DNA of 61,909 nucleotides, counting the filler, from Hausera hauseri (lineage: Eukaryota): the NCBI GenBank assembly GCA_046269625.1. It is 11 parts of 11 records of this genome, joined end to end, with 100 filler letters (N's around TTAATTAATTAA, not from the genome) between each part and the next. Parts side by side here need not be neighbours in the genome. Positions count along the whole stretch, not along the records: positions 32,148 to 39,798 come from JBJURY010003124.1; positions 39,899 to 44,951 come from JBJURY010350379.1; 9 more parts are not named here. One strand, 5' to 3'. This document shows positions 1 to 47,368 of the stretch, one piece after another. Numbering within the stretch: position 1 is the first letter of the stretch; each line of letters opens with the position of its first letter. The notes under the pieces are model-generated. The model saw only the letters and a program-made list of their open reading frames with translations, was not told where the DNA came from and did not search any database. Both the position numbers and the translations under genes were made by a program.

Positions 1-430
1 CTGCGAAGATCAAAACCAGTGGTATCGTAAAATTTTCGTGCTACTTCTTTGTATGTGCCAGTTGCCAACTAATACTGACGAATCACCTCTTCGTGATATA
101 AAATATCACGAACTCCGGCTAACCGTGTGATTGGACATTTGAAATGTTTACAACTATTTCGATAACATCGGCTCAGATTACCACTTTATCTGTAAATATT
201 TCCGCAACATTCCGGTAGAAATCTGGTGGATCCATTTGGTTGTTGATATTAACTTCAGTGAGACCCGTTATATGCGTATCAAAGTTGTTGATACGCTGTC
301 TAGGTGTCATAATTCCATACAGCAATGTATCTCCATGCAAGGTCATAATTGATGCTGTAATGGGCTGGAGCTGATTCCATTAGTCATAGGCCAAACGTAC
401 GGCTGCTATGACCATATCATGGTCTGTTAT
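1..430 (-). pseudogene. DEDDh (REX/ISG20-like) 3'-5' exonuclease-fold domain
   Basis: Read in frame through the stop at 380-382: QPITASIMTLHGDTLLYGIMTPRQRINNFDTHITGLTEVNINNQMDPPDFYRNVAEIFTDKVVI*AD..RLAGVRDI, which matches the REX4/ISG20 core pattern. Confidence 0.7.
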
Positions 431-2606
431 TTTGTCAATTCGCCTAAAGGGAATACTTTTGTATTTGATATAATCCGGCTCTAGGAGGTTAAAACATTTT
501 CCTTCCGGGAGGCTTGGACGAAATTTTTCATTTTTGATTACCTCCATAGCTAGTATTATTCGATTGGTGCCGGATCGGATTTTAAATGTTTTTGCATTGG
601 GGGATGAGTGATCAAAGGCTAGACCGTGTTCCGAATCCAAATTAATCAAGTCTTCTTTTATAGCCGTCTTTTTATCGGATGTTTTTATTTGTAATTGGCC
701 GATAAAGCAATAGAGGTTCATTGAGTGGAATCGTTCTGGTAGGATTAATATGTCAGACAAATAGAATGAGGTTGCTTTGGAAATCTGTAGAAGGGCGAGA
801 GAGCGATTCTCTATACTGTAACCTTTTAGGTTGTTTGGAATTTGTTGCGCCTGAGGATAATTGAGGCTTATCATATTGTCATTGTGGACTATGTGATACT
901 GATTGGATGGATTTGCGTTGATAATATGATTTTTAGCATTGTTGTGTAAATGTTTGGATCGATTGGTCGTTTGGATCTGGTGGAAAGTTGATGATGATAC
1001 TGTAATAGACAAAGTCAATGTTGTTTTATACACGATACTTAAACACAACACAACATTTATCATGCAAATCACTACGGTAATCGTTGTGGTTACACAAGAA
1101 TAGATTTTACGGTGAGCGGTAAATAGGTATTGTTTAATTATCTTTATTCTCAGGGTTTCGCAAACAGCAATCTCTGAAACTAGTTGTCAGCTGGGATTAT
1201 CCGTATCTAACGGATTCGTTAGATCACGCATATTGATTCGCACCAAGCTCCTTTTACGTTTGCATCGTAACCGTATTGGTTTTATTGATATCACCATCAT
1301 CACTATAAGTACCAATGGAACTAATGACCCAAACGGGAATGCTTATACGCCGCTCGTGATGGCTTTTTCGTTGTTTTGTTTCTAATCATGTTAACCTTAT
1401 ATGATGGTTCTATTTTATTATTTTGGTTTGTGATTGCCGACATTACTTTGGTGGAAGTTATTGTATCATTTTCATCTAATAATTGTAAGATGACTGAGTA
1501 TCTCGCATGGGGGTCCAGCGCCGCGAACGGCACTACCAGATCGTCAGGTGTTATGACTCCCTTTGCTACTATTGTATCTTGTTTCTTACAACTGAATTTA
1601 ATTTTCACAAAATCAAGATCTGGTCTAACGGAAATAATTAGTGAAGTAGGGGCTGCCACGATGGTTACGTTATCCCATATGGAACGTTTTTGACGGTAAT
1701 AGGAAGCGTAAGGTTTAATTACAACAGTCATCACCCTCGTATTAGCTGAGGAGTGCACAATCGGTGTCGTGAGCTTTTCTTGTATATCATCATATTCTTT
1801 TTAATTTTTATATCGTATAAACATATTTGGTCCTTTTCGTTCTAGTGGATTCAAAAACTTACCGTTTTTCTTTCGAAACAAGGTATAATTGACATAGTAT
1901 ATTCTTCCTCGTGTAACCATACAACAAACTCGTTTACCTTTAATCCTGCTGATTCTGACTTCCGGAACTACTGTTTCTGTTAGCTTTATTGTTATTCGTC
2001 GAATACATTCTAATTGTACCATCGTTATAATCTCAATTCAGCTTCTCCCGCTCTTAAATCCCATTGGCCTTACAATTAGCTGGTTGAGTATTATTTCGTC
2101 TAATAGTTTCGTTCATTTGTTGTCTAGTAGGGATTACTATTGATCTATAAAATTTTGTTTTCTTGCTTTTATAATAATGCCCCTGCTTCTTAATAAGTGT
2201 AAGATATACAAAGTGGACACCTGAGCCTTGTACTATACACTGTGTCTGACTAGTCCCTGAGTGGAATAGACAATTATACTGTCGCTCATTGGGATGTCTT
2301 TTGTCATCATACCAAGGTATCAATTGTATCCCTATTATTTGTACTAGGGGCATTTGTTCTGGCATACTCCAGATCATCATTTTTCGACCTTTCTCTCAAT
2401 GTTATTTTATACTGTAGCGTTTTCATCAACATATCTTCTTTTATGGCCATTGTATGTCTCATTTTTGCTTGTTCAATTTCTTGATTAGTCATCTGTCCTA
2501 TCACCCCGGGAAATAAGAGGATAATAATTAATAATAGACCTTTCTTTAATTGATGAGGTTTATTTGTTGAGTCTACCTCCATCACTTTCTCATTAGTACT
2601 TCGCAC
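430..2606 (-). pseudogene. Post-integrase cargo: signal peptide, ectodomain, FN3-like domain, two hydrophobic segments and an IPNNLKG domain
   Basis: GLLLIIILLFPGVIG signal-like stretch. FN3-like VPFAALDPHARYSVILQL. TM ISIPVWVISS/LVLIVMMVISI followed by RCKRKK (across frameshifts). Second hydrophobic VVICMINVVLCLSIVY. QIPNNLKGYSIEN at 821-841 is shared with contig 8. Confidence 0.55.
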
Positions 2607-3700
2607 TAAATCTTTTCGCCTTTCCTTAATTCACTCTCCTTCGCGGCGGGTTTACATCTATTAACGTGGACCTTCAGAAAAGTGTTATTTTTCTTCAAAC
2701 AAATGTTTGGGAGGTTTACTTTTTCTACTTCGTATGGTCCTTTATATGGCTTATCCAATTTAGATGTTTTCCCCTTTTTAATTGTCGGTGAGTATAACAT
2801 TACTTGGTCACTTATCTTAATTTTTGGTTGTTTGGTCTTTTTATCATGGCACTTTTTATATTTCGATTTATAATCCTTTTGATTACATCCAACTGTTTTA
2901 TATGCCAACTGAAGGCGTTCCTGCATTAGCTGTTTATAGCCTTCTATTTCCATTAAGTGTGAAACTGGTTTCACATTAAAATCTAAATCGATTGGTAGTC
3001 TGGCCTCCCTTAAATATATTAGATAATAGGAGGTTTCTTTAGTAGCTTCATGGACTGATGTCCGATTCACAAAAACACATGCATTGATATATTCATCCCA
3101 ATCATCTTGTCTAGTGTTTACCACGTTTGTAATTTCCCTTTTAAATCTCCGATATACCTCTCGACCATTCCATTATTCTCTGGATGTCCAGGTGTGGATC
3201 GTAGTTTTAATATCTTTAGAATGTCATATAGATTGCATTACAGTTCCGGTGAGATTTGTTGCTTGATCAGTCAAAAGTATTCTCGGGCTCCATAATTAAA
3301 TACTATATTCTCCAAAAATTTCTTATCAATTGTATCCGCCTTCATATCAGCCATTGGTAGGGCAACAACCCATCGAGTGAAATAGTCAATAAAAACTAAG
3401 ATATATCTATTTCCATTCCGTGTTAGCGGTAATGGTTCCGTTATATCCATTGCGGTAAACTCGCATGGTGCTGGGGGATTGTCCCAAACTTTGAGGGGTG
3501 CCTTGTATTTTGATCCCGTGTTCTTCTGGGTAGCACATAATTTACAACTGTCGCACCATTCCTGTACATTTTTCGTCATTGTCGGCCAAAAGTATTTTCG
3601 TTTCAGTTTATTAAGCGTCTTACTGGCTGATTGGTGTCCTCCGAGTAGTCCATCATGGTATTGGGTCAACAGAACTGCTCTATTTTTCTTAGGAATTACT
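2606..3700 (-). pseudogene. Gypsy integrase with HHCC, DDE core and GPY/F domain
   Basis: HDGLLGGH..YFWPTM..CDSCKLC; AMDITEPLPLTRNGNRYILVFIDYFTRW; KLDKPYKGPYEV..VHVNRCKP. Confidence 0.93.
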
Positions 3701-3899
3701 AAGGCAGGTCCGTTTTGATGAATAAAATATAAAAATTCCTCTCTTCGTAAGCTTCACTGAATCGGGCCAAATGGCAGGTTAATTCTCTATTATCCGGTAT
3801 GGTTTTGTCCTTTATGTATTTCCGAATGGCCCTTATTTCAGCGTCTTCATTTTGATCCGCCTTAATTTTTTCTACGGATCCATCCATGCTTTATACGGC

Positions 3900-5200
3900 T
3901 GCAACTACTGCTTTTTCTATTTCCGGATTTATGGGTATTCTAGATAGATAATCCGCAATTCCTTTTCGCGATCCAGGTTTATACTGGAAATGAAGCGTAA
4001 AAGGCTGTAACTTTAGAGCCCATCGTAGAAATCTGCTATTCGGATTCTCATGGTGCTTTAGCCATTGGAGCTGTCTGTGATCTGTATAAATTAAAAGGGG
4101 TTTATTTTCACTGATACGGTGAAAATACTTCTAGAGCAAATATTACTGCTAATAGTGCTTTTTCTATCACCGCATATTTCTTCTGGTGTTTATTTAGTTT
4201 TCGTGAAGCATAAGCTATTGGGTGTTCCTTTCCGTCTTCCTCTTTTTGTGATAATACAGCTCCTACTCCGTAATCACTTACATCTGTTGTCACGATAAAT
4301 GGTTTGGTCATATCAGGATAAATCAATATGGGGGCCGTTAACAGTCTGTCTTTTAGATATTCAAAAGTTTTCTGACACTCATTCGTCCAGACAACTTTAT
4401 CTAGGTCTTCATATAATAGTTCGTACAGGGGTCTCGCAATTTTACTAAAATCTTTTATAAACCGTCGATAATAGTTTGCCAAACCTAAGAATCGACGTAA
4501 CTCCATAACTGTACCTGGCTTCGGAAAATCTCTTATTTTTCCTAAAAGCTTGTCCTGGTGTTTTACACCATGCCTGTCTACTCTATGTCGGAGGAAATCT
4601 ACTTCTGCTTGAGCAAGTGAACATTTCTTTGGATTTATCTTTAGACCCATTATTTCGCATCAGAGATCTTGTAGATCCCTTAGATGTTGAAAATTCGGTG
4701 ATGCTATTATTACACGTCAATATACACCATGGCATGCGGGGCATTTAATAGCAGTTCTGTTCCTCTCTGGAACGTTGGCGGACCGTTCTTCAGTGCAAAT
4801 GGCATGCTATTAAATTCCCATAGCCCTTCTCCGATTGAGAACGCCGTTCTTGGTTTATCTTCCTCTTTCACCTCCACTTGTCAGTAGCCTATTTGTAAAT
4901 CAATCGTTGAAAATATTGTTCATCCATGCAGTTTATCTAGTATTTCGTCAATTCTTGGTAACGGGTATGTATCCGTCTCCGTTATTTCGTTCAATGCTCT
5001 ATAGTCTATACAAAATCTCATGGTCCCATCCTTCTTGACCATTACCACTAGAGCTGTCCATGGGGAACAACTTGGTCGAATTATCTTGTTTTCTCATTTC
5101 TTTTTTTTCCTGCTTCCTATTTTTTATCGTATGCTAACCGATATGATCTTTTCTTGATTGGTTTATCTTGTCCATCCTTTAACTTAATGGTATGTTGTAT
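3900..5200 (-). pseudogene. Reverse transcriptase and RNase H (gypsy), frameshifted
   Basis: WEFNSMPFALKNGPPTFQR; MVYID (YIDD remnant); LRRFLGLANYYRRFIKDFSKIARPL; TDVSDYGVGAVLSQ; HPIAYASRKL. Confidence 0.92.
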
Positions 5201-5368
5201 TATTTTCATTGTACCAGATCATAATCATTTTGTGCAAATCGATTGTTATTTTTCTCCAGCAGCTCGATTAGCATCTTCTCTTCCTTAGTTAAGATTTCGC
5301 ATTTTTGTAATCTCTCATTCCAATTGATAGCTTTATTTCTATTTGGCTCCCTCTTCAGTTTTCTGTCA

Positions 5369-6103
5369 TTATTCTATTTTATCTACATCTAAAATTGTTG
5401 AGCAGATTTCTTTCGTTATTTCTTCAATGGTTGTTACTTTTCCTAGTCTAGTATCCTTTCGTAATCGTTTTTCCTTGTTTGGCGTATTAAAAAGTCGTAA
5501 ATGGACTTTTCCATCCCTTACTTTATCTATGTAAGGGGCGATTAAGACTTCATATTTTTCCATAACTTGTGGAAAGGGTTCAAAATGAATAACCTCCGGT
5601 AATGCTTGACTTTCTATTTTGCCGAGTACCACTATCTCGGATCGTGGTGGGATCGTGGTGTCTTTGGTTAGTGAAACCATTCCCTCGTTACGGTCTTCAC
5701 CGAACGTCTTGAGTTGACACGTTCTCACATCTATGTAAGCATTTTCTAATTGGCTTAATATATCACATCCGATTAAAATTTCATTAGTCAAATTATCTGC
5801 TATCCTTTTAGTATGTTTTATAATTTGTTTGCCAATTCTAATTTTGTCATCTAAGACCATCTTAATTTCCTCTTCTGTGCCGAATGCTCCTACATTTATT
5901 AATGTAGTTGTCGGTCTTTGTAATTTCCTTTTTAACTCCTTTGGCAATTGGCTCTTTCCTATTATCATTGTTGTAGATCCTGTGTCCAGTAAGGCCGTCA
6001 TTGGATATCCATTCACCTCTATTTCTACTTCTGGTCTTATAGGTGGTTGCCGTTCATTTTTATCATCAGTTTTATATGTAGATTCGCGTTTGTAGGGTAT
6101 CAA
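5369..6103 (-). pseudogene. Retrotransposon aspartic protease plus PR-RT spacer domain
   Basis: VNGYPMTALLDTGSTT catalytic motif; ILIGCDIL; TTIPPRSEIVV spacer typical of gypsy Pol. Confidence 0.9.
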
Positions 6104-8208
6104 ATTTTCATCAAAACTTTGTTTTCTGTTGCATCTGATGTATAGAGTACAGTCCTGTTAGTAGTACATATCGAGAAGCTGAGGGATTCACTAATGGTTA
6201 CTCGTATAACTGTCCATGATATTCCTCTGGGATCTAAGTGAGGTAAGTCTGTTACTAACTTTTGTCTATATTTAGGCTCTCGGGACCCCAGTGCCAGTTG
6301 TTTAATGCCAGTCATTCGTTTACGTTTTGCTTTTACTTTTACTTGATCACGTTCGATATCGTCATCATCAGGTATGCTATATGGGGAATCTTTTCCATCT
6401 TTTCTTTGTAATATCTTTCTTTTCCATTGTGCGTCGTGGTTTGCTAGGAAACAACTGGCTACTGCCGGTATTACGGCTATTAGAATTTTCCATGAGCATC
6501 CTACTGCTGCATGTATTCCATATGCTTTACCTAGTGCCGTAAATATTGTCCGTAAGGCGCTAATAATAAAATATATAGCTTGAAAACCGGAAGCTGCTTG
6601 GCCAAAATATAAGAACTTTTCCCACATCTTCTCCATAATATTTCTTGTTACTTTATTTAGATAATCTTTGCGCATTAAATTTTCCCATTGTGATAATCCT
6701 TCACCATCCCACATTACTCGCCTTGTTAATTCTGTTATAACGCGTTGTCTTTGTTGTAGGAATAACAACATTCGTCGATAGTCTTCTAAATTTTGTGTAT
6801 CAATTCCTCCCTGTGATATTCCTGTTAACGGTTCAAATTTCTGATTCCTTTTCAAATTAATCAAACTTAATTTCTCCGGTTTGGGCACTGGTTCTCTCTT
6901 TGGTATTCTAATCCATTTATCGTTATAGATCTTAAACATTGGCGACATTAAAAGTGCAATTGTATAGTGGAGTGGGCTTTACATTAATATCGAATAATAT
7001 CCTAGTCACCGGCATAACATATCGCGCTTCTGAGTGATAAACTACAAGTAATTCCATTGTACATTCGTCTACTGGCCTGATTGATACTTCCGCCTTCTTG
7101 CATTCTATTGTTATAAGTACTTCGCCCATCACTTCCGATAATCCCATATCCAAAGGGCATTACTGGCGCTACCATGTCAGGATTCGTTATTACCAATGCC
7201 ATTTTATTACGTATTATTTCATAGTTTAGTTTACATTCATTCATTATTGTTTCTCGATATAAACCTCTAATTTCTTTTCTCACGTAATTAATTAGAAAAT
7301 CGATCTTATCGAAATATTGTTAGCTTTGTCTTTCTTATCTATTTTGATTTTCGCACCGGGTATTTCTTTTCTCAATAAGAAGATACACTTATAGTTGGTT
7401 TTTGATATTTCTTCGCTGCACTTATTTGTTACTCCCGTGATTTTGAATCGCATCATTTCTTCTGGGCTTTCCGAATATACAATTGTAGCCACTTCTGTCA
7501 TCTTGGCTTCCTTTGTTCCTTCTTTATATGTCGCTGTTTCTTTTTCTGCCGTTTTCCCTACTGTTTTATTAAACTTTCCTTCTTTTAGCAGCGTCAGATG
7601 ACATTTACTTGCTATGGTTTCCCATGTCATTTTCGACTCCAGTATCACATTCACCATTATCATATTCACACACTCATAGTCGTCATCAATTTCGTTTGTG
7701 AGTCGAATAATCCTTCATATTCATTCAACTGGATATGATAGTCTTCTATGGCTACCGTTCTAGGCGCAATGGTACCTCCAACATCGTAGTCCACTCCTTT
7801 ACAGGTACCTTCCATTGTTTTATCTATTCTTCCTGCCCTGAAAATTCTGGTATATTTTATTCTGTTTCGAACTTCCGGTATGTGCGCGTTTTGTATAGTC
7901 ATGATGCCAATCTTAAAAGCATCCTGACATTCTGCTCGTGATATGATTATCGGTTCGAAAGGTGTTATGGCTGAATTTCCAGAATAACAGGTACAATTAA
8001 AGAGGAAAAATGATCTCTTTACATAACATTCCCTGATTTTCGCTTTTATAAATTCGGATTCTTGGTATACCCAGTATGTAAGACCACTTGTCGTTGTTAA
8101 CTGTTCTGGGTCGGCTTCTGGACACTTCTCCAAATTAACTAGAGAGTACTTTTGTCCTTCGCTAGGTTTAGAACAATCGTAAGTCACTATACCCACGGCT
8201 TTTGGCAT
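6100..8208 (-). pseudogene. Chuvirus-type (class III, gB-like) envelope glycoprotein, frameshifted
   Basis: N-terminus GIVTYDCSKP..YSLVNLEKC..VYQ..IRECYVKRSFFLFNC. Middle GEVLITIECKKAEVSIRPVDECTMELLVVYHSEARYVMPVTRIL. C-terminus WEKFLYFGQAASGFQAIYFII..AYGIHAAVGCSWKILIAV. These match the pattern I recall for chuviral G and its retroelement-captured copies. Confidence 0.8.
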
Positions 8209-18257: not shown

Positions 18258-18261
18258 TTGT

Positions 18262-33083: not shown

Positions 33084-36000
33084 CATGTATTGCGTCTCGC
33101 GCATACATGTAAAGGATCATTGTCATCATCAGATGGAGAAATATTACAACGCAGGACGAAAGGACACGTAATAGTGTCCAGCGTGTAATATTCCAATCCT
33201 CTGTCCGTACCCCGATTTTTATGAAATGCACAGGCATCATCTTGGTCCGTTTACACGATCTAAGAAGATGATCATGAATTTGCATTGCTCCGTATACCCA
33301 CGGTACTTTAATAGTACAACAGTGCATGACTTTGATAATTGTCATAGTAGAATGGAGAGTACTATGGCGTCACAGTGGTGCACGGTAAACCGGCCTATGT
33401 TTGTTCCGGTTGTTCTATAGTTGAAGCACAAATCAACTATGAACAATTTTATAATAAGCACAAGGACCACTTGAACCAATTTCAGCGGTCCAAAAAGCAA
33501 ATAGTAATAAGCATTGCCCCACGTACCCACACTACTGCAATAATAAAGTGCACACGTTAGTGGTTGTCATAGTTCAGTGGAGCAGTACTATGGCACCACA
33601 ATGAACGGGCCTACGTTTGTCCCGGTTGTTCGATAGTTGAAACTCAAATCAACTATGAACAATTTTATAATCTGTACAAGGACCACTTAAACCAGTTTAA
33701 GCGGACTCAAATACAAGCAGCATGCCATCAACAACAACCAGTAGGAAATATCAGGTCTTAGCCAGTCTTGACTACTTAATCGGAAGCTGTACAGAGCAGC
33801 AGCAGCAACAGGAGCAGCAGGAATAGCATCATCAGCAACAACAACAAGAACAGGAGGTCAATATTCCCATTACAGTCAAGTACGATCTGAACAGATCGTA
33901 CGTAGACATAAATGTGAACATGTCGGCGAAAACAACAACTCAACTGAGACATTTTCCCCAAAATGTGCTTAACTGGTTGGAATCCGAAGTGGAGAAATTC
34001 AAACATCATTGCAAAATGCAATATTGCAGAATTCGAAAATTTGGAAGGTGACAGGAAACAATGGTACCTGTCACATCGAGCCAAACTGTATTCCGACTAT
34101 TTTGTTGCCGATGTAGGCGAAAAGCTCGACGAAAAAATCGCCAAATATCCCGAAAAGGGTAGTTGCTTGCAAATTATAAAAATTGTCACTTTCGGCTTTA
34201 TCATAACAAGGTCGAGTAATATAATTTACCTGTTCGGACGATCATTCATACCGACACCTACAGCTCTAAAGCACTGTTATGCGGTATTGAATGTAAAAAT
34301 ACCGACGACGACGAATACTGTTTCATTTACAGTATTCTGGCCGTATTAAAATATGACAAAGTAGGTAGACATAGTGCATATCGTCCAAATCAGTATCCGA
34401 AGTATTTTTCCGAATTGGACTTTGATGAATGTTGGATGTCGATGAAAATGAAAACCATTCCGACTTTTGAGCGGCGTAACCGGACGCTGTTAATTAACGT
34501 GTTCCGGTACAACACAATCGTAGAAATACCGGAAGACGAAGAGATTTACAAGAACCCCCATGTGGGCATAATCTATAGAAGTCGGAACCCGAATGGACGC
34601 CCAATAAATTTGTTGTTGTTAGAGCAAAAGGAGGCGGAAATTTTTCATTATGTGGCCGCGACAAATTTGTACAGACTGTTGAACATAGAACATGACCAGT
34701 TCATCGAAAAGCGTATACCTTGTAAATGGTGTCCTGTATATCTGCATGGATTCGGGTCAGAAACAACATGGGAGAAACATGTGACACTATGCAGACAAAA
34801 TTCATCGGAAACAACAACATATATCATGCTCTTCAAAAAGGAACTAAGGTTCACTGATTGGTGAAAACAAGCTGTTTGGCATATGTAGTATATGCCGATA
34901 TCGAAGCTATCTTATCAAGACACAACATATATGACCAAAAACATGTTCCAACCGCTGTCGGTATGTTGGTAGTCTCAATAAAAGCTGCAGGCCACCAACA
35001 ATATTATGTTTTTCATGGCTAGAACTGCGTACGCGATTTCCTGCACCAGTTGGAAACAATAATAGAAACGGAAATCGCACCTCGGTACAGTAGAGATAGC
35101 AATAAACCTTTTATGTGGACAGATGAAGCTGAGCGTCTGACGTTTGCAGTCACAGATGAATGTTACCTGTGCCACAAAATATTACCGTTTGATGCACAGG
35201 AACAGCTCAAACCGGATCACGACCATTTTACCGGTCGATATCTCGGAGCCGCATGTAATTCATGCAATTTGGCAAGGTGTGTGCAGCCATTCCTACTTGT
35301 GGTATTCTATAACTTCAGGGGTTATGATTGTCACCATATTTTTAAATGGGCCTTAAACAGATTTCTGCACTGAAAACTATCCATAATTCCGACTATGATG
35401 GAGAAATACCTGTCACTGTCTGATCGTATTAACCCGTTACAGGTACACTTTCTCGATTCATTGAAATTTCTCAACGAATCTCTGGTAAAGCTGGTAAATG
35501 CCTTGCCAGATGTGCCGCTAATATTGAATCAGTTCTCCACACGTATTGCACGTAGCAAAGGCATATTCCCGTATGACATTGAGATATTGTACGAGCGACT
35601 CCAGACGACAGACGATTTACCACCGCAATGGCTCGGTATCATAGAAAAAGAATATCACGAAGCACAGTCGTTTTGGGCAGAGCTCGGCTGCAGAAACCTG
35701 TTGGAATAAATGCTTTAGTATCTGAAATTGGACGTGTACTGTTAGCCGATGTGTTTCAGACATTTCGAGCTAAAGCGTTGGAAGAAGATAGGCCGGAGCC
35801 ACACAACTTTTACTCAATACCCGGAATGAGTTGGGCATCAGCTATAATGTCACTGGATCGGGATATCCAGCCATTGCAAGACCCGGAAATGTACCGAATA
35901 TTTGATGTTGGTATTTGTGGTGGCATGACATTTGTCAACAAGCATCACGTAACCAGTGATGATACGGCATCACTGTTGTATATCGACATTAATAGCCTAT

Positions 36001-37161
36001 ACGGCTGGGCGCTTTAATAACCCTTGCCGTAAGGTTCGTTGGAATGATTAGTCGACAAACAGGACCTGGACGACATAATGGAAAATCTGCCGAGAGCAGA
36101 TACAACAGAAAACAGCTCAATCGGGTACCCGATGGAAGTCGATCTCGTGGTACCAGATGAGCTGAATAATTTTCTGGATGAATTACCGGTCGCACTAATT
36201 ATCCAATGTCCGCTGGGCTCAAAGGTGAAGAAGCTGCTTATGACGCATGAACCCAAGCAAAATTACATAGTTCATTGGCGTCTGTTGCAATTTTACATCG
36301 ATCAATCCGATTAGCACAGGCTTTAACATTCAAGCCGTGCATCAGTCGGAATTCGGAAAAACGAGCTGCAGTTTGTACGAAGTTTGAAAAAGTCTATTAA
36401 AAACTGAAAAACAAATCTTTCTACGGAAAAACAGTAGAGAATCTGAAAAAGCGGCTCAATGAACGCCTATGCAATAGCGAAAAGCCGTTGGTCACATACA
36501 CGAGCAAGGCACAATTCAGGCAATCAATGTACATTGCCGATGGTTTGGTTTCCGTGCTTTTAAACAGGAAATAAGTCGTACTAAACCAGCCAAGTTATAT
36601 AGGACAAGTGGTATTTGACCTGAGCAAGTTGCGGATGTATAAGCTGCAGTATCGCGATTTGGTACGTTACCGGCAAATGTTTGGTGGATGCAAGATAAAT
36701 ATAATTGCCGGTGACACAGACAGTTTTTTCTTGGAACTGAAACACGTCAGTCGCGAACAACTAGTGCGGCAAATGATGTTAGAAGGATTACTGGATACGT
36801 CCAATTACCCACAGAATCATTCATTGTACAGCAGCTCCATCACAAACAAAATCGGTTGTTTCAAGGATGAAAGTGAAGGTCGGCCTCAGTATCCAGAGTG
36901 AATATTTCAACGGCCAAAATGTTTAAGCCTTTTAACTGACTGTGGACCGAAATTTCGCACCAAAGGAGTTCAGTTGGAGCAGACGGAAATAAACCACGGT
37001 GATTATCGCCTTATCTATGAAGAAGAAGGACAATCAAAGGCTGTTGTGTCTCAAACGATCATCCGATCAATTGAGCAGCAGCTGTATGTGGTGATCAATG
37101 CAAAAGTCGCTTTATCATGTGGAATAAGAGTTTGGCGTACCGACATTGGCGTTTTGAATAA
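33084..37161 (+). pseudogene. Protein-primed DNA polymerase B with an endonuclease-VII-like zinc insertion, heavily frameshifted
   Basis: YADIEAIL; CYLC..DHDHFTGRYLGAACNSCN; FYNFRGYDCH; FLDSLKFL; KGIFPY; YIDINSLYGWAL; KNKSFYGKTVENL; GDTDSFF; IGCFKDE; RPKC. Confidence 0.93.
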
Positions 37162-38079
37162 AACACATATGAATTCGGCACTGATGATACAGACAGATAA
37201 AAGTGACTCATTTACTGTGCCAATTCATTGTGATTTGTGTTTTGTGAATAATGCATATTGTTCGTAGTTTTGCCTCTTGTTTTATTATCATTTAATTTAT
37301 CTATATATTTAACTAAATGTTACGAGAAACAATGTGAAAAACAAAATCCATAAAATTCATTAATTATAATCTAAAATCAAAAACAAAGTAATTCAAATCA
37401 GCGTAAACTTTCCAAGCTTCCATATTGGTAATTTAACGCCGTGCAGATCCTTGTATCCTTTCAACTTCAAAGTCAGATAGCCTTTAGCTCCTTCAGGTGG
37501 CAAAACTGCTGCTGTTGCTGTTTATCCGCCATGTGAATTGACAATTTTTGCCACATTTCCTTTGAGAAAAATCGACGATGTATCTCGGATACCTCTACCC
37601 AACACCAAACCACTGTCAGCTTTTCTATTTGTGTCGTCCACTGCATCCAAATCATTGTCGCTGATCTTTTTCATCAATAGACCATATTTATCGGTTTAAT
37701 TTTGACCGTTTGCGTCAATGGCAATTGAATAGCCTTGCGCAGCTAATGTAAGTTGTATCCATTATACAAACGCAAATTTCTGAGCGAATACTCGCTGTAT
37801 CTTGGCATTTTTAAGAGACTCGCGGAACTGTCACCTGCTGAATTGTTTTCAAAAGTCATTGTTTAAAGACAAATGCAAAATGAAATTGCATCCATATTTA
37901 TATCGGATTTGTTCATACCGTTTTTTTTTCATTGTAAACAATAGATATTTACCTTGTGAGCATTGCCTCATATCCGTATGATGCATATTGTCTCATCACA
38001 ATGATACATACTAGTTAAAATTACCTCCACGTCATTGTAGCCCATGACACTGTTTCGTTCTGTTATTGAATAAGTCATT

Positions 38080-38561
38080 CGTAATAAAGGTATACAATTT
38101 CAATTATAGCAAATTTACAATCTAAACATTGGGTTCCTTTGGAACACATTTTACAAGATGGCCGCAAAAACAAGATGGCCGCACATTAGGAATACCGTAC
38201 TCACTTTTCTTTGTTTACATATTACAAACATAAGCTGATAGTGTCGTACTTTGTCCATTATTTTCTTTTTCAAGTTCTTTAATTCATTGCGTACCTTTTC
38301 TACAGCATTAAAGTAATTTGTATCATTCAGTCGGTGAATGTAAATTTGATTTAATACAATAATTAGATTTTCTATAGAACTGCAATCTGTTGTTGTTGTC
38401 GTTGTCATTAATGCTATTGACGCTAAATCTTCTTTAAATCCAAAATTGCCTGCTGCTCTCGCATCCAAATCACTATCAAGTACTTGCCACCATCGTACCA
38501 AGTCTGAAATTGCTAATCTATCAGAATTTTGCAATTGCTTCAATTTATTAACTATTTCCAT
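38080..38561 (-). pseudogene. Coiled-coil plus IAP-type RING finger protein
   Basis: QLMFVICKQRKVSTVFLMCGHLV is a decayed C3HC4 of the IAP/Mdm2 class (C..C....+FLPCGHL). Confidence 0.65.
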
Positions 38562-38709
38562 GATGATTAATATTATTATTATAACCTACCCGTATTTATA
38601 GTTTTTGAATTATTCAACTGACCAATACGGCTAAAGATGTCACGGACCTTATTTACAGAAAGAAAGAAAGAAACAGCGAAATACATTTATTTATTTGCAT
38701 GAAATTTAG

Positions 38710-39179
38710 TCAATACAAAGCCGTAGACATCTTTTGTAAGCATAATGCGGTCAATGATCACGATACGGACATCTAATATTGTCAGGTACCATCGCCAGCG
38801 AGCTGTTATATGTTGAATGTGTCGTCATTCGCAACTCGGGAAAGTGTGAATGTAGTTGCGTAAACTTCTGACCGTCAATTTGATCTTTAATGTAAAATAT
38901 TGTATTTTTAATGTTAAAACGATTATAAATCTCTCCCATAATACATGTCACACAGAAAATTGAATTACCTTTATACCTAAGACGTCCCTGATGATGTTGA
39001 AAGAGAAATACGTCTGTAAATTTCGCCTTTTCCATCAGGTAATTCCACACAACACCAGGCTTGAATACGTACACAATCGGTTTGAAAATGTTACCGACGT
39101 CCATAATGCATAATTATTTTATTATGTACCGGGCATTATCAACTTGGAAAGCTTCAATATCTGTAAATCCTGTAGCCAT
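38710..39179 (-). pseudogene. DEDD-like nuclease-fold accessory protein
   Basis: MATGFTDIEAFQV..YIIK*LCI..YVFKPG..W..HHQG..FYIKD..CPYRDH. Shows the D-x-E ExoI-like motif and the FKPP/HG pattern I associate with Polinton accessory ORFs. Confidence 0.55.
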
Positions 39180-39329
39180 TACTTATCATGTACAAAATCA
39201 TTTTTTGCTTATAACACAAACAAAACAAATAACTATTATTATTATTATTATTATTACCACAATCATTAAACATAGGCGGTTTTGTCCATATCACCAAACC
39301 CAAATTCTTTGCATTCATTTTGTGTTGGT

Positions 39330-39735
39330 TCCTTGACACAAAACAATCCCCTCGTTCCGGTGGCATTACATTGAATTCAGCCGCTTCACATCGAAGAAAT
39401 ACAATTTGTGCTATTGCATTGCCTTTCGCAATATCATACAATAATCCGGATTGATTTTCCAGCAACATCTTAATTTCACCACGGAAGTCTGAATCAATGA
39501 CACCGCCCACAACTGTCAGTCCGAGCTCTGCCAGTCCGCTTTTCGATAAAAGTTGGCCGTAGTAACCGGGTGGAATCGCCAATCGAATCTCAGTCGTTAT
39601 GCATTTAATTGTGATATCCGAAATTGTCGTATTAACATTGGAAAACACATCGTAGCCGGCACTGTTTGCTGTAACACGTCTTGGTACAACTGCATTTTTG
39701 TCTGTTAAGATAATCTTTACATTATTCATTATCAT
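39330..39735 (-). pseudogene. dut: dUTPase with a damaged C-terminal motif V
   Basis: SAGYDV; IPPGYYGQLLSKSGLA; GGVIDSDFRGEIK; GNAIAQIVF; ERG. Confidence 0.93.
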
Positions 39736-40619
39736 TATTCTTATACGTATACCAGTATTAAAATTACACGTATATTTATACTCGTTAATTGGGTTAATNN
39801 NNNNNNNNNNNNNNNNNNNNNNNNNNNNNNNNNNNNNNNNNNTTAATTAATTAANNNNNNNNNNNNNNNNNNNNNNNNNNNNNNNNNNNNNNNNNNNNGA
39901 TTTGTTTATTTACTGGAACTATTAACTTCCCTGTCCTTTTTGAACGGAAGATTGAGGTGAGGTAATTTCCTAACTTAGGGTTTTCCCAAACATATGTATT
40001 CTCGAAAACTTCTCTTGCTGGGGCAACTTTGCTGTAAAACATAGCTTCTTTAATTATTTTCTTACTACAATATTCTGTGGATCTTCTTTTCTAAAAGTAC
40101 GTTGACTTCAGTTATTCTATATTCAATAACTTTCTTCTTTACGGACTTTACCTTCTGAGAGGTACTTGGTTCGATTTGTTGATTTTCATATTTTAGCTTA
40201 TCTTTTCTTTCTTTCTTGAATAAGTAGTTGTAAATAGATAGCGTTTTCTTGGGCTGGGGCTTTTCTTCTAATTTATGTTTCTTTATTATTGTTTCTGGCC
40301 TCCATTCTTTTGTGTATTTTTCTAGAGACTTTGGCGCTACATGGAGTATTTTGTTTCCTTTTCCGATCGCTTGTAGGTCACTTTTATCTTCCTCTTGTCC
40401 TTCCATAGGTTTTTGCACTGTGGTCGTCATATTATGCTTGCATGTTGACTGGACAGTTCTGATCGGATAGTAAGGTTTGATATTTCTTCTATATTTTATA
40501 TCTATTTGCTCGGGCTTCAAGGAACTACGTAAATTGTATATGGGGTTTCTAAGGTCCCATTCGTGTTCCAGTTTAATGATTTATAAATTTCTTGCTGATA
40601 TTTGCAGCGTTGGCTAGCC

Positions 40620-41060
40620 GTTAGAAGTCTTTTAATTCTCATTGCTTCGATCATTAACTTGAAGAAGGCTTCTGGAGCGGTCGGTCGATTTGTTCCTTGT
40701 ACAGTTTTCTCCATTCGTTCCTGGATTATTGGGTGGGTGGCCATTTCCCTAATTCCGGCAATTTTTGCATCGGACATTTCTAGTAACACGATTTATCGTT
40801 GTACGTTATATCATGTCAGCATACAGCAGTAAAGACAATAATTCAATTTTGAACGGACTTGTTTAATGTCTTTTCCTCTTATGAGCTGCTCTTTTATTAA
40901 ACCGGTCACTTCTGCATACGATTCTTGGACATGTTTATGGGGTTTATGACTGCAGAGCATATTTCGACCCCATCCCCCTCTCTAATAGATACTTCTATGG
41001 GTATTTCATGTCCATCATCTCCTATGACACAATTTATCGCGATGATTCTTACGTTGCAAC
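40620..41060 (-). pseudogene. DEDDh exonuclease-fold domain
   Basis: RIIAINCVIGDDGHEIPIEVSIREGDGVEICSAVINP..VTGLIKEQLIRGKDIKQVRSKL..LT*YNVQR*IVLL..KIAGIREM; homologous to 1-430. Confidence 0.7.
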
Positions 41061-41149
41061 CATCTTGGATTAGCCTATATGACTGACGGTGTTCATCCTT
41101 TTCTACCTCGTTTAAAATTTGTTCAAATTCTAGGGCTGGCAACCGTCGA

Positions 41150-43300
41150 TTACAATCTTCTCTGCTACTCTAAATTCTAGGCCGTAGTCGATACGTTCTA
41201 AACCTGTCTGTTTATTTTAAATGTACTGAACCGGTATTGACGTCCTTCGTTGGAGTTCAAAGGTTGGTTCTATATATTATAATATAGTTCTCCGTCGGTT
41301 AAGTGGGTATATATGTCTTGAATTTTGACTAGTAAGTTTCGGATTAATTTCTTTAAGGAATATGCTTTAGCCTGATTATCTTCGCGCATTGCGTAAAGGA
41401 AGACTGTGCTATTCTCCTCCGTAATGCCTTTTAGATTATTGGGGATTTCGCTGATTTTTGAAATTTCGATATATGTTTTTGCTTGTAGGGCTTCGGTTAT
41501 CATCCTGTAGAGACTTTGAATTTGGAATAAATACTGTAGTTTGTTCCTGCAAATATTCGTTGATGCTAATTCGGCTATCCATACTTACAATTCTGAAAAA
41601 TAGAAAATAAGGGTCAATTCTATAACAAAGTATTGTTCTAAATCTGAACCAATTCTTTGTTTGATGGTGGAATAACCCGACCTGTAATAGTCAAGTTACT
41701 CCATCATTGATTTTATCCTGTGGTACTATTACCCTTAACTCCCTCTTGGTGATTTTATGACGCTTATTACAGCAGTTTTGGTAATAAATCGGAGAAACGC
41801 AATGAAAGTTACGAGAGCAAACGCTGACGATCTAATGATCGATATTATTGACAAAGTTGTCCATTTAGTTAGGTTTTTTGTTTTAGCAGTAGTCATATTT
41901 TTGCCTTCCGTTTCTTCGTTAATGAGTGGTTTCGTTAAGCCAATTTCGTTTAGGGTCCGTACCGTAAACGTTCTACTTTGTTTGTTCTCTGCACCTATTT
42001 GTATTACGTAGTCTGTTTTGGATTTCAAGTAGGTACATTTGATTTGATAGATACCTTTTGTCAGCGTTACTTTTTGATTATTATGTAATGTTTGGCAGCT
42101 TATTTCTACATCGTAGTTAAGTGCTTCCTTCACAACGAATGTTATTTCATGCTGTTATGTCCAATATTTTATAGGAATCATTTCTAAATCCTTCTGCGGT
42201 AACCCACTTGTCTGGAGGATTTAGATGGAAGTTGAAGTAGTCATATTCCTTCTTGTAATCGTAATTCTGCTTGTTGTCATTTCAGATGGAATTCTTCAAA
42301 TTGGATTTTCCAATTGATAACTTCCTAAGTAAATACTCGACTGGTTCGATAGAATTTCATATAAGTCTATCCGAATTCTATATTTATTTCTCCGAGTTAA
42401 CTTACAACACTTATTCGGCCTTTCGGCGTCGATTTGACAGTACTGTTGATTATGGGCTGCTTTGTCCTCTCTTGTGAATTGAACTGTGATTACTAGTCTC
42501 TTAATTAACCGTCCTTTTTTGTTTATTTGGGTACAGTTGTCCTTTGGATTTTACGTTATACTGGCTATATTTTCTTATAGAATTCGTTTTAATGGGTCTA
42601 TGGACTGAAGCATATCTTCTAGCTCGATATTAAGGTAGTCTCTATAAGTTCGTGGTATAATTAAGTGTGAATCCAGGTTTATTTCGGCGTGTACCTTATT
42701 ACAGTTAGGCAGATATGAACGATAACTGAGAGCATAAGAGTGTCCGTACTCTACGCTGCAACAAATTGTATCGTCATCTGGTTCAAATTTACTATCAGTC
42801 TCTGCTTGGTTAAATAGGTTGTTAAATAGTATATGGATTTGCCCCTCATATGGTCCTGGTATCTTAAACCCGACACATAAGGCCTCTGGCAAAAAATAAT
42901 CTAATTTTATTGCTCGTAAAAATTTTTCGTCTTTTTGTTCTGATTTGCGTCCTGGAGTTTCTTCCCTTGGTGGTGAAGTTTTTAAAGCGATTTTCCAGAT
43001 TCCATATATATTGCTCAACGAAGTTTCATCGACCCACCATTGGGCGTTAGACTTAGGCGTTAGGACAGCAATTAACGATAAGGCTACTATTATCTGTGCG
43101 TAAGGTACCGGTCTTGTGACAACTGACGAGGTCTTGTTTTCTCGCGGTCTTAGATTGTAGTGTTTAGCTGGTCTTATATCTGTTTTAACTACTCTTTGGA
43201 TTGATACGACTTCCGCTTTTCCGTTTTTGTTAACATAGACCGTGGTTGACGTTGTGCGGATGATTTCATATGATCCTCTTCCGGTACGTGTTAATTTCAA
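41150..43300 (-). pseudogene. Integrase C-terminus in frame with signal peptide, ectodomain, FN3-like domain, TM segments and IPNNLKG domain
   Basis: ORF 42575-43300 runs from GSYEII..VSIQRV into YAQIIVALSLIAVLTPKSNA|QWW. FN3-like LKSKTDYVIQIGAEN. TM WTTLSIISII..ALVTFIAFL. EIPNNLKGITEEN at 41426-41446. Confidence 0.6.
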
Positions 43301-46047
43301 GGACGTACATTTTTGCGACTGGGAAATGTATATAAACCAAATTTCCCTTTTTCAGATCACGGGGTTTAATCTTTTTATCATATTGTTTTTTAAATAGTTC
43401 CTGGTATTCGAGTGATAATGTTTTTGCAACTTCTCAACACTTTTGCAATCTTGTCTGTAAGACTTTGGCAAAATTTTGCTCTAGATCTTCGAGGTTATTT
43501 TTGTACGGCGTCATTCCTAGATCTGTTAGTAAGATCGCTTCTCGGCGTACATCATAAAGAACGGTGTAAACCCTGTTGCTGGATGTGGAGTTGTATTAAT
43601 CGCAAACTGTGTCCCTTCTAGGAATTCGTCCCAATCCTTCTGGTCTTTGGCCACTAATCTTGACAGTATACGAATGATTGTTGTATTCATTTGTTCGACC
43701 ATTCAGTTACATTGTAGTGGTACGCGGTAGTGGTTAATCGTTCGATTTCGAATATCTTAGTAATTTTTTCGAATAATTTACTTGTGAAGTTCCTTCCTCT
43801 ATCCATTAGGGTTTGTTCTGGTGGTCCATATCTGCAGATAATTTTCTTTATCACTGCATCGGCTAAAGTTTCTGCCTTTTGATCTAATAGTGACACCAGC
43901 TTGACGAAATGCGTTAATCGATCCACGCATGTTAGAATATATCTGTTATTTTTGTGAGTTTTAGGCAAAGGTCCCACTATGTCCATAGACATAGCTTGCA
44001 TGGGTCTATCTGGTACGTTTATGTGTTTTAGTTCTGCTACGTACCCTTTCGTTTTCCTCTGCTTTGTCGCGCAAACTTCGTAAGCACTACCAAATTCTTT
44101 ACATCAATATAAATGCTTAGCCAATAGTATTTATTTAATATCCTTTCCAAGGTTTTCTTCCAAGACATGTGTCTAGCTAAATATGAATAATGTTCGGCCA
44201 TGAGTACTTCGACACGTAATCCTTTGGGGAAAACTATTAGTTTTCTCCATTTTCGTTCATAATATGGGATATTATTTTGGTTCGATGCGCAACATTTATG
44301 TCCGTGTTTCTGCAGGTGCTTCTTCAGTTGTCGTACTTTGGTCATTTCGCCGTTTTGTGCAAACTCAACAATTTGCAGAATAATCTTATCTTTAGCTTGT
44401 TTTGCGTGATCCCTATCGTTTTATCCAGGGTTAAAATCTTTTGTCGTTCAATTATTTGTTCGATCTGCGTTTTCTTTACCGTGGTGATCCCACTGGTTTT
44501 TGTCTTTAACCTTGATAGTGCGTAGGCGTCGACGTGGTTATTACCTGGTTTGTATTGAAATTCGAGATTTCTTCGATCCAATGGTTTAATATACATGTTG
44601 GGTTATTAACTCGTCCTTTCAATGTCGTGACTGCTTTGTGGTCGGTCACTATTATAATCTTTGTCCACAGGCATAGACAATAAAGTGTTGTAGTGCTTCC
44701 TTTACGGCTAACGTTTCTAATTCGGTAACCCAATAATTCTTTTCTGCTTTCTTTAGTGAGCGTCCTCCATAGGCTATTGGATGTTCTATTTCTTCATCTT
44801 CTCGTTTCTGAGCTTATTCGTAACTTATATCTTCTTTACTTGCATCTGTTTTAATGATGAATGGTAAGTTAAATCAGGGTATTTCCGAACTGGTTCGTTT
44901 GTCAAAAGTTCCTTCATTTCGTCGAATGCTTTTTGCTCCACTTCTGTCCATNNNNNNNNNNNNNNNNNNNNNNNNNNNNNNNNNNNNNNNNNNNNTTAAT
45001 TAATTAANNNNNNNNNNNNNNNNNNNNNNNNNNNNNNNNNNNNNNNNNNNNTTGGACAATAATGTAACAATTTCTGATAGTGAATTATTAGACAAATCGG
45101 AATTTTATGAAACGCATTCGGACCAATTCCTCATATTAAATCAAATATTATGTATGCCGATAAGAAACAACAATAAACAAACGACTAATACTCCATATCA
45201 AATTGAAGAAGAGCTGATCAATAAAACTATGCATAAAAAACATTGTCAAAATTCTTCAGGGCAATTACTGATTGATACGAACACCACTTTTAATCGCAAT
45301 TTGGCAGTCATTTGTGATTTGGATATTCCATCCGATGCCCATTCTTGTACTCATACGATTATACCCGATGATCCCTACGACGATTTCATTTAAAACCATC
45401 CGAGGACAACGAGCCATAACGTTGCCTCACTGTACGTATCGGAACTTTCCAACAAGAAAGAAACACTTTCCGAAGATGAGACCAGTTTGGTTGCCGATGA
45501 CTACTGTAACACGTTACCAAATTCCATATTTCGATGAACACCACATTCACCAGCACCGACACATTCACAAACGAATACTTATTTTTCATTACCTATACTG
45601 TCATAATCCGGAACGAAACGATCACCGGATTTGGATGGAGTTTGCCATCTGTTGAAAAAGATGGATTCGGACTTGGAGAAAATTCAACAAGACGCCTTTA
45701 TGATTATTAATATTGACGATCTCTATTCGGATTCAGTGGCACCGTTTGAAGCGGAAAACCATTCACGAATTGGCGATAGTTGGGACGATATTCCTTTTAT
45801 TGATGATGATGCATGTTATACCGATTCCTTCTATGGTTATTCGAATTATAAGGTGTGGTTAATTAAACATCCACGACTTTCTAAATTTAATGACATATAC
45901 GGAGCACCCGAACAGTCTGCGATAAACATTGGCCATCAAAGATTGGTTTTGGCGACTGCCCCCTCGGCTGTGCGACCAGAACATTATCTGATCGAAAACC
46001 ATGGCGAGTCCGTGATCCGTGCGCCACAACAAGCCTCTGGCATCACT

Positions 46048-46267
46048 CTTCAACCCTTTTTTGTTTTTAAAAATAACACATAATTCTACCATACATACTA
46101 GTAACACAGAGATTACTTACACCCACTATATGTCTCTATCTTCTTTCCCACACACTTCCGACTTTTATTTTTTCGCACCATGGTTCTGTGCTACACCCGT
46201 CTGACTCACTTTCTTCCTTCGCTTCCTTGATCATTCATCTCACCCTTCACTTTCACATCAGGGTGGT
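46048..46267 (+). pseudogene. Ubiquitin-like domain preceding Gag, frameshifted
   Basis: Joined frames give LQPFFVFKN/HNSTIHTSNTEITYTHYMSLSSFPHTSDFYF/SHHGSVLHPSDSLSSFASLIIHLTLHFHIR/GG. The final RGG needs a 1-nt correction. Aligns with 58487-58720. Confidence 0.6.
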
Positions 46268-47324
46268 TCGAACCCTGATTCTTCTGCTGAAAATTCCTCC
46301 AAAACAAGATCTGGTCGTCGCTCTGTTAACTCTGCACAATCTGCTTCTCCTAACCTTCCTTGCACAGAGTTCTTCCTCGATAAAACTAATTCAAGCCGCA
46401 CTTGGCTACAATTTCATTTACAATGGCTTAAAGCCAATCATATTACCGATTCTTTCTTGCACGCCAACAGCTTGTTACTTCTTCTCCCAGCAAATATCAA
46501 GCATCAAATCAATAATCTTACTAATATCCTTACTTCGCCAACACCATATGACATGCTTTATGAGTCTGTTCTTTATATTACCGATCTATAGATTGATAAT
46601 ATAATACAGAAGTACTTCAACGTACATGCTAGAGGCAGTCAAAAACCTTCTGATTTCCTGCAGACCTCTATTTCACACCTAAGTGCTCTTGGCGTTACTT
46701 CCACCAATAATGCGGACTTACTTCGTCGTTATTTCATTTCCTCCTTACCTACTTCCATCAGAGCTATCCTTACTGTCGTTGACGACTCGAAGGGAATCAA
46801 AAAACCTGCCCTATTGGCTAATAAAAGTTTCGAAATCTTGCAACCCAACAACTCACAACCCGTAGCTGCAGCACCACGCATACCTCATCTCATGTAGACA
46901 CGACTGTTTTTGCACAGAAAGTACAATTAATGCAGAAACAATGCAATACTCTACAGCATTCAATCTCCGCCATCACGGCTCAACTAAGTAATCTGTCTAT
47001 GTCTCGGCGAGGCGAGATTCGTGCATCGCGCGAGCGTAGCCTCTCCAGGCACTCATTTCGTTCCAAATCTCCTGGCGGATGAATGATTTGTTTTTATCAC
47101 GAGAAATTTCTTAGAAATGCAGAAAAATGTCTTTTGGGTTGTATATATTATGACGAGCGTTTTGCAGTGGACAGCCCTCTCTGTATTTACCACACAAAAT
47201 TCCACTCTCTAGCCAGATCGTGTGTTCCGGGATGTAAACATTACAAAAACAACTTTAGTTTTTCTTCATCTTCTTCTCCTCCTCCTTCTGTCTACCAGTC
47301 ATCTTCTTTCCCTCCACAATCTTC

Positions 47325-47368
47325 AAAAAACTCAAAAGGCCGCCAGATGTTACAGAACATTCTGGCAT
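47325..47368 (+). promoter_or_regulatory. Gag-Pol -1 ribosomal frameshift signal
   Basis: A AAA AAC in Gag phase, followed by the stem GCCAGATGTT..AACATTCTGGC. The -1 frame is open into the protease motif. Confidence 0.8.

Follow-up and report, generated by a model that had tools for sequence, protein, structure and literature searches.

The 61,909-nt window of Hausera hauseri DNA analysed here (GenBank assembly GCA_046269625.1) consists of 11 contigs, the joints of which (10 sites, e.g., nt 39799-39898) are 100-nt N linkers containing TTAATTAATTAA, and neighbouring contigs are not biologically adjacent. The element under study, hereafter the target, occupies contig 8 (nt 39899-44951, minus strand), where a decayed gypsy-type pol is followed by a cargo of two open reading frames (ORFs). 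ORF A specifies a predicted surface protein with FN3 domains and ORF B a cupin-like domain, a DnaQ-like domain and a further conserved block; the two are separated by a UGA codon in a context of the leaky type. A diverged sister element with the same order of features is found in contig 1. A homologue search among 1.84 billion protein representatives returned five matches, four of which are true homologues (P0005 to P0008, all ENA singletons); the fifth (P0009) was dropped as a repeat artefact. The features of both elements are listed in Table 1.

Table 1. Features of the target element (contig 8) and of the sister element (contig 1); positions refer to the whole window.
Element	Feature	Position (nt)	Strand	Remarks
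Target	Decayed pol with RNase H region, followed by zinc-binding region and core of integrase	43319..44951	-	numerous stops and frameshifts; contig start lies within pol
Target	Integrase C-terminal region, GSYE	43112..43351	-	in frame with ORF A
Target	Signal peptide of ORF A, predicted cleavage between SNA and Q	43043..43111	-	from sequence; same position in P0005 (between TQA and Q)
Target	Ectodomain	41950..43042	-	helical N-part, 2 FN3, Ser/Thr-rich linker, probable third FN3; 5 premature stops
Target	FN3 domain 1	~42915-42650	-	projected from P0005
Target	FN3 domain 2	~42595-42295	-	projected from P0005
Target	Probable FN3 domain 3	~42180-41955	-	projected from P0005; based on its strand pattern, with a weak match to Pfam fn3 (E 0.12)
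Target	Transmembrane helix of ORF A	41783..41854	-	hydropathy 2.13; aligns with transmembrane helix of P0005 and P0007; helix in model
Target	Short basic cytoplasmic tail (predicted)	41694..41780	-	beyond frameshift near 41780
Target	RNA hairpin over stop	41664..41707	-	-22.2 kcal/mol, z -5.5, lowest of 499 70-nt windows of contig 8
Target	Conserved UGA and CUAUUA hexamer, candidate programmed readthrough site	41685..41693	-	UGA at 41693-41691
Target	Pyrimidine tract and AG, possible splice acceptor	41593..41620	-	overlaps the proposed second hydrophobic segment; best of 155 YAG sites
Target	ORF B N-part, spacer peptide then IPNNLKG domain	41150..41690	-	frameshifts near 41515, 41210 and 41150; 40% identity to P0006
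Target	DnaQ/DEDDh-like domain without motif I acids	40580..41142	-	A at 41040, N at 41034; frameshift near 40940
Target	Lys-rich linker and conserved ~60-aa block (40075-39905)	39899..40577	-	block 56% identical to P0006 610-667, E 1e-12
Sister	gB-type/Monjiviricetes fusion glycoprotein	6100..8205	-	PF24664 E 1.2e-26, 5.7e-15 and 6.6e-4 in three pieces
Sister	Decayed protease, reverse transcriptase (RT), RNase H and integrase	2606..6157	-	RVP, RT_RNaseH, Integrase_H2C2, rve; RT core by eye
Sister	ORF A analogue	1190..2582	-	own ATG, signal peptide (cleavage between VIG and Q), FN3-like stretch by eye, transmembrane helix (~1339-1283), basic tail
Sister	UGA and CAACUA	1181..1189	-	UGA at 1189-1187; exact CARYYA
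Sister	ORF B, IPNNLKG domain and DnaQ-like domain	1..1186	-	cut by contig end

The integrase core of the target lies at nt 43690-44103 (Pfam rve, E 5.7e-14) and is preceded by an RNase H-like region recognised by eye. The C-terminal region of the integrase, which we take to be GPY/F-like, continues within one open frame (nt 43351-42578) into the signal peptide IIVALSLIAVLTPKSNA, with cleavage predicted before Q, as had been proposed from the sequence alone. From the integrase C-terminal region through the transmembrane helix this frame carries 5 stops in 524 codons, whereas 49 and 38 are found in the remaining frames, and it is thus recently decayed coding sequence. Its breaks were previously read as frameshifts; they are stops, and the first frameshift is found only near nt 41780, just past the transmembrane helix. 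Because the signal peptide of the target is in frame with the integrase, a Pol-ORF A precursor cleaved by signal peptidase is possible. Fusion to Pol is not general, since in the sister element the ORF A analogue starts at an ATG of its own, about 25 nt past the integrase stop and in a different frame from the integrase, and in P0005 a Met immediately precedes the signal peptide. The second-ranked acceptor-like site of the target contig, at nt 43319 (minus strand), falls within the C-terminal region of the integrase, shares the phase of ORF A and represents a possible spliced route to this gene.

The ORF A homologue P0005 (479 aa) matches nt 43120-41927 in a single frame (33% identity, E 1e-56) and is made up of a signal peptide followed by an ectodomain, a single transmembrane helix and a short tail. 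No sequence match to P0005 was found in the PDB. Its AlphaFold model (3 rows, mean predicted local distance difference test score (pLDDT) 49) shows three beta sandwiches, the first two of which match the FN3 domains of fibronectin and cytokine receptors (Foldseek E 6.7e-7; VIA Z 9.1, root-mean-square deviation (rmsd) 2.1, 84 aligned). The FN3-like domain and the first transmembrane helix of the sequence-only reading are both borne out by these comparisons. The lists of structure matches for ORF A were filled by FN3 proteins; a fusogen fold (class I F, class II Gc or class III gB) from a family not among the listed matches is possible. The tail of the target matches those of P0005 (2 of 2000 shuffles as good) and P0007 (15 of 2000). 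A tyrosine sorting motif (YDRI/YGRI) closes the P0005 and P0007 tails, and was not used since the tails of both window elements are without it. ORF A is thereby predicted to be a surface glycoprotein of type I that carries two FN3 domains, probably a third, and a single transmembrane helix.

What had been taken for a short loop after this helix holds a conserved stop codon. P0005 and P0007 terminate 24-27 residues past the helix, in the same register as the UGA of the target, and beyond the UGA both window elements continue in frame into ORF B, which stays open for 84 codons in the target and 268 codons in the sister element. The hexamers that follow the UGA are CUAUUA in the target and CAACUA in the sister element, and none of 12 other in-frame stops has a context of the readthrough type. 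The background frequency of such contexts is low: contig 1 has 529 stop triplets, of which 2 are followed by CARYYA (the sister site being one), and in contig 8 UGA-CUA accounts for 3 of 288. Among the 40 listed of 1,172 differences between copies in run X1, one at nt 41689, carried by 55 contigs of other copies, yields a CARYYA hexamer. According to the available part of a study of mammalian reporters, CARYYA and UGA-CUA define classes of readthrough context, UGA-CARYYA gives about 15% readthrough, and UGA-CUAUUA restores high readthrough (PMC4132726). The peptide behind the target stop is conserved with those of P0008 (0 of 2000 shuffles as good) and P0006 (22 of 2000); between the target and the sister element, conservation of this peptide was not detectable (1423 of 2000).

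The RNA around the stop is also predicted to be structured. Besides the hairpin over the stop (Table 1), the surrounding 181-nt region of the target has a folding z of -3.1, and in the sister element the stem close to the stop is weaker (z -2.1), the region 3' of that stop being unremarkable on its own. A search of Rfam gave one sub-threshold, miRNA-like match over the hairpin region. The bin at nt 41589-41757 shows a spike in summed contig depth in run X1 (19,266 versus 215 and 337 in the flanking bins), which hints at a conserved RNA signal. Judged from sequence context and its conservation, readthrough of the UGA is probably used.

A rather improbable alternative treats the UGA as an ordinary stop and ORF B as a separate soluble protein made from a spliced or internally promoted subgenomic RNA (acceptor at nt 41593, ATG at nt 41582). 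The best of the 155 pyrimidine-tract/AG sites does sit between the stop and the in-frame ATG, gene callers give P0006 and P0007 as separate proteins (each on a contig of 16,242 bases, assumed to be the same one), and third ORFs are described as usually spliced or internally promoted in the parts of the literature available (PMC4402516, PMC5408684). However, the acceptor score is equalled by 94 of 1000 shuffles, the sister element is without a comparable ATG past its best local acceptor, and the alternative leaves unexplained why both elements continue in the same frame, why they carry readthrough hexamers and why the peptide upstream of the AG is conserved. Readthrough and a spliced route could coexist. 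A GTAAGT donor consensus occurs at nt 41588-41583 (minus strand), 4 nt past the acceptor-like AG; P0006 and P0008 have V-S at this position, which the same bases could encode.

The acceptor-like tract overlaps the second hydrophobic segment of the sequence-only reading, and a reading of that segment purely as a splice acceptor was downgraded after the stop contexts had been analysed. The best 19-residue hydropathy values after the stop are 1.05 in the target, 0.31 in P0008, 2.07 in P0006 and 2.48 in the sister element. The case for a second transmembrane helix is weak, and such a helix is not supported.

The ORF B homologues P0006 (870 aa) and P0008 match nt 41524-39905 in several pieces with 34-56% identity. 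The IPNNLKG domain at its N-terminal side has no Pfam match, and its model is a low-confidence double-stranded beta-helix or jelly-roll (pLDDT <50) that resembles cupins, GOLD domains and capsid jelly-rolls alike (Z 5-6); BFVD matches of the ORF B model were set aside as low-confidence jelly-roll noise. A word-index protein search with residues 55-430 of P0006 returned only P0006 itself. No phage match was found for the cargo, and a word-index search of the sister ORF B against longer proteins gave no match, which is weak evidence.

The next domain was proposed from the sequence alone to be a DEDDh exonuclease of the REX/ISG20 type. The fold is upheld: by sequence it matches 8h18 (E 1.5e-4) and, weakly, a plasmid exonuclease (E 2e-8 pairwise) that was used only as an active-site reference, and by structure the top Foldseek matches are ISG20L2 (E 3.7e-4) and ISG20, with a Z of 7.5 to the PolC exonuclease 2p1j (rmsd 2.8, 77 aligned). 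The model of ORF B has a pLDDT of 37 overall and about 70 in the DnaQ-like region, where only the N-terminal ~85 residues of the fold are well supported. The catalytic acids are another matter. Pfam identified no nuclease in any cargo piece, and the D-x-E of motif I is replaced in all four sequences (A-x-N in the target, P0006 and P0008, A-x-R in the sister element; DIE of the reference aligns with AIN). At motif II (N-x-x-x-D), P0006 has NVQYM against NIHFD of 8h18, i.e., D to M, and the target has a stop at the corresponding place. No H-x(4)-D or H-x-A-x-x-D of motif III is recognisable, in a region where the alignment is unreliable. With the acids of motifs I and II lost, the domain is most likely a pseudo-nuclease, and we regard it as very probably dead. 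Inactive DEDD derivatives that retain RNA binding are known in Maelstrom and EXD1, as reported in the accessible part of PMC5408684.

These residues bear on the possibility that the cargo specifies a membrane protein that spans the bilayer twice and bears an active DEDDh nuclease, destroying immunostimulatory nucleic acid in the manner of arenavirus NP or pestivirus Erns, the analogy originally drawn. Such a protein would agree with the DnaQ/ISG20-like fold and with the hydrophobic stretch after the stop in two of the four sequences. It is largely refuted by the replacement of D and E in motif I of all four, two of them intact database proteins, and counts as very unlikely; the motif II acid is also replaced in P0006, motif III is not recognisable, and the hydrophobic stretch is missing in P0008 and weak in the target. 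An accessory module with FN3 and DEDDh folds in a gypsy element stands. The analogy to active viral nucleases fails, given the loss of the acids of motifs I and II and the most likely cytosolic position of the domain.

The exonuclease fold, the last part of the sequence-only reading, is not the end of the cargo; the cargo runs on to the end of the contig, and P0006 ends in a C3HC4 RING (residues 747-790; 30.8 bits versus a Pfam cut-off of 21). The target contig stops 80 residues before the RING position, directly after the block that is 56% identical to P0006. A RING is likely to be present in the family of the target, and ORF B is inferred to be cytoplasmic because of the RING downstream. The conserved leaky-type UGA, the RING of the intact homologue and the gB-type fusogen of the sister element (see below) had no place in the sequence-only reading.

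In the sister element, the order of protease, then RT, RNase H and finally integrase identifies the pol as that of a Ty3/gypsy element. The gB-type fusion glycoprotein immediately precedes the protease ORF, with which its frame overlaps at nt 6157-6100, and this is a GAG-ENV-POL layout. The integrase cores of the two elements share 35% identity over 95 residues, and ORF B of the target and sister shares 22%. Direct BLAST between the two cargos gave weak matches (18 aa at IPNNLKG with E 4e-4 in one comparison, a best E of 0.03 in another), and the similarity of ORF B is significant only through the bridging homologues: a profile built without the sister sequence recovers it at 14.3 bits, a score reached by 0 of 171 scored shuffles (maximum 3.1). 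Vertical descent of a cargo common to both elements had been claimed, and this result sustains it for ORF B. For ORF A it does not hold at the level of sequence: 14 of 187 shuffles were as good for the ectodomains (hhalign E 0.49), their layout being alike, and the tail of the sister protein matches those of P0005 and P0007 only weakly (212 and 55 of 2000 shuffles as good).

The target is one of many copies. In run X1, 8,384 contigs align over all 30 bins of the target contig, including pol and cargo; 336 of them have at least 99% identity to the target, 1,149 have 95-99%, 3,238 have 90-95% and 3,661 less than 90%, so that 6,899 of the 8,384 fall below 95%. This coverage and spread of identities indicate that pol and cargo are multi-copy and that the target is a decayed copy. 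The cargo could in principle lie outside the retrotransposon, as a host gene or second mobile element placed beside a gypsy pol by chance: no long terminal repeat (LTR) was seen, both contigs end inside ORF B, and summed depth in run X1 is far lower over the cargo than over pol. This is very improbable given the equal order of features behind two integrases of only 35% identity, the integrase of the target in frame with ORF A, a match to P0005 uninterrupted by introns, a diverged contig (record 6, nt 42702-43189) that bridges the integrase end and ORF A, and further listed joints that connect pol and cargo. A search near the ends of the target contig found no tract resembling a polypurine tract. 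The cassette very probably belongs to the element.

These features suggest a working model in which one frame gives two proteins, an FN3 glycoprotein that ends at the conserved UGA and a rarer long form made by readthrough. Most ribosomes would halt at the UGA, giving a surface glycoprotein with a short tail, and a minority would go on to add an effector tail composed of the cupin-like domain, the probably inactive DnaQ-type fold and the RING, the last known from one intact relative. Signal peptidase would release the glycoprotein, whether this is fused to Pol or made from an ORF of its own. On the surface of the cell or particle, the short form may bind a host protein, beside a gB-type fusogen such as that of the sister element. 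The long form may act as a membrane-anchored E3 ligase, following the logic of PA-TM-RING proteins and viral K3/K5; its dead nuclease fold might bind RNA ends or RNA-loaded proteins, and its RING might ubiquitinate a host protein (a receptor or defence factor), caught via the ectodomain or the pseudo-nuclease, for removal. For the target, one decayed copy among the many of its Ty3/gypsy element, we favour this account of a readthrough-coupled glycoprotein and a membrane-anchored ligase acting on a captured host protein, at about even odds of being right.

The same two products might instead serve particle assembly and spread, the short form as an attachment partner of the class III fusogen and the long form tying RNA or Gag of the element itself to the membrane via the dead nuclease, with the RING recruiting budding machinery. 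Arenavirus NP/Z and capsid readthrough proteins provide the logic of this alternative. It would suit the gB-type env of the sister element, the setting of a major-to-minor ratio by readthrough, and an ectodomain that diverges fastest (no match between the elements, against 22% identity for ORF B and 35% for the integrase); an Atlas match to arenavirus NP, at 0.87, is a lead only, as all Atlas matches fell below the 0.9 line. Env is not seen for the target contig, which begins inside pol, no late-domain or Gag-binding evidence was found, none having been sought, and GAG-ENV-POL elements are described without such a partner in the main text of PMC13524379. Assembly is a doubtful explanation, and action on host proteins rather than on the particle of the element itself is slightly favoured.

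Several observations weigh against the model of a readthrough-coupled, membrane-anchored ligase. Its binding partner and substrate are hypothetical, and the RING is present in one of four ORF B sequences, the other three ending earlier. Model confidence is low for both ORFs (pLDDT 49 for P0005 and 37 for ORF B). The hydrophobic stretch after the stop in the sister element and P0006 could be a second transmembrane helix, flipping the topology. The hairpin of the target is placed over the stop and not 3' of it, and by itself the 3' region has no unusual stability (z -1.0); the acceptor-like tract before the in-frame ATG offers another route to ORF B. The ectodomains of the two elements show no significant similarity, and both elements are cut off inside ORF B, with no LTR within either contig. 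DNA of the intact homologues was not found in viral contigs or JGI metagenomes, so the stop contexts of P0005-P0008 and their linkage to pol were not seen.

Taken further, the data may be read as an invertebrate Ty3/gypsy lineage with the organisation of a complex retrovirus, having a class III fusogen between gag and pol and, as a second glycoprotein, a receptor-like FN3 protein that a conserved leaky UGA turns in part into a membrane-anchored, RNA-binding ubiquitin ligase, which removes host receptors or small-RNA defence proteins. Antagonists of the Vpu/K5 type would be the counterpart of this arrangement and host PML its mirror image. We consider this broader reading tentative and, on balance, unlikely.

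Other contigs of the window carry unrelated features. Nt 32148-39798 is a decayed Polinton/Maverick-like or other large DNA-virus-like segment with polB-like pieces by eye, an Endonuclease_7 domain, a dUTPase (E 5e-23) and a RING-like ORF, and Polinton-type integrase fragments with weak rve matches occur at nt 17505-18266 (minus strand) and 29920-30324 (plus strand). Two decayed gypsy copies that are related to each other and belong to another family (gag, protease, RT and integrase by eye) lie at nt 46077-50800 (plus strand) and 54485-59250 (minus strand), and a profile search found no cargo match in them. A small TBP-like ORF at a contig end (nt 12422-12712, minus strand; PF00352, E 2.4e-10) is possibly element-borne. 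Host-type genes are represented by an intronless otopetrin-like ORF (nt 51866-53536, minus strand; E 2.9e-7) and a DEG/ENaC-like piece (nt 8407-8958, minus strand; PF00858, E 5e-5); both indicate an animal, and the kinds of element present suggest an invertebrate.

The usual view of animal Ty3/gypsy elements allows them gag and pol, with no more than an env besides. ZNRF3/RNF43 and K3/K5 of Kaposi's sarcoma-associated herpesvirus (KSHV) are membrane-anchored RING ligases, and PML also has a RING. The receptor-like ectodomain, transmembrane helix and cytoplasmic RING of ZNRF3/RNF43 resemble the proposed long form, the link in sequence being generic RING similarity only. PML is a host gene that restricts retroelements, whereas the cassette described here is encoded by the element; the PML/Plex9 proteins have a DEDDh-like domain, as does ORF B (PMC10123124, available part). 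Errantiviruses of the GAG-ENV-POL type with an Env like that of herpes simplex virus gB occur in Nematoda, Bryozoa and Platyhelminthes (PMC13524379), and the sister element likewise has a PF24664 glycoprotein upstream of its pol. No 3' cassette is described in the main text of that study, where 'exonuclease' and 'fibronectin' have 0 occurrences. Compared with those elements, the target contig starts inside pol and the sister contig ends inside env, and no gag is seen in either. Closer in position is ORF3 of the bdelloid elements Juno and Vesta, which has a DnaQ-superfamily domain downstream of pol in a gypsy-like element; in the accessible description it is RNase D-like (DEDDy), with intact acids and no transmembrane domain (PMC5408684). 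The fold here is ISG20/DnaQ-like, its acids are lost, and it is coupled to a membrane protein with FN3 domains as well as to a cupin-like domain and a RING. The giant planarian gypsy element Burro/GYPSM1 has env between gag and pol and accessory domains tied to ubiquitination and host control, but this cargo (MATH, BIR, BCL2, ankyrin and SUMO-like) is in ORF1 upstream of pol, and no FN3-transmembrane/DEDD cassette appears in the portion of the report available (PMC6431247).

Readthrough is precedented as well. Type I signals (stop-CARYYA, tobacco mosaic virus) and the UGA-CUA of alphaviruses consist, as here, of a single in-frame stop with a canonical 3' hexamer (PMC4132726), and suppression of the stop between pol and env of SIRE1 provides a precedent in the 3' gene of an LTR element (PMC2194720 and PMC2829016, as far as these sources were available). 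Unlike in those cases, the stop here is inside an accessory gene, after the transmembrane helix, and its suppression would swap a short tail for an effector tail. Each ingredient (a 3' accessory ORF, DEDD cargo, env before pol, readthrough) is thus precedented; the combination was not found in print. No report of an FN3-transmembrane, readthrough, pseudo-DEDDh and RING cassette was found in the literature, and Repbase/Dfam and the supplements of PMC13524379 could hold one. Retention of the cassette across integrases that are 35% identical, and of the readthrough signal in two forms, points to long selection. Accessory genes in animal Ty3/gypsy elements are known from few lineages, such as bdelloids and planarian Burro, and the cassette represents a candidate for an element-encoded antagonist of host defence, or for a second entry glycoprotein, in the endogenous retroviruses of invertebrates.

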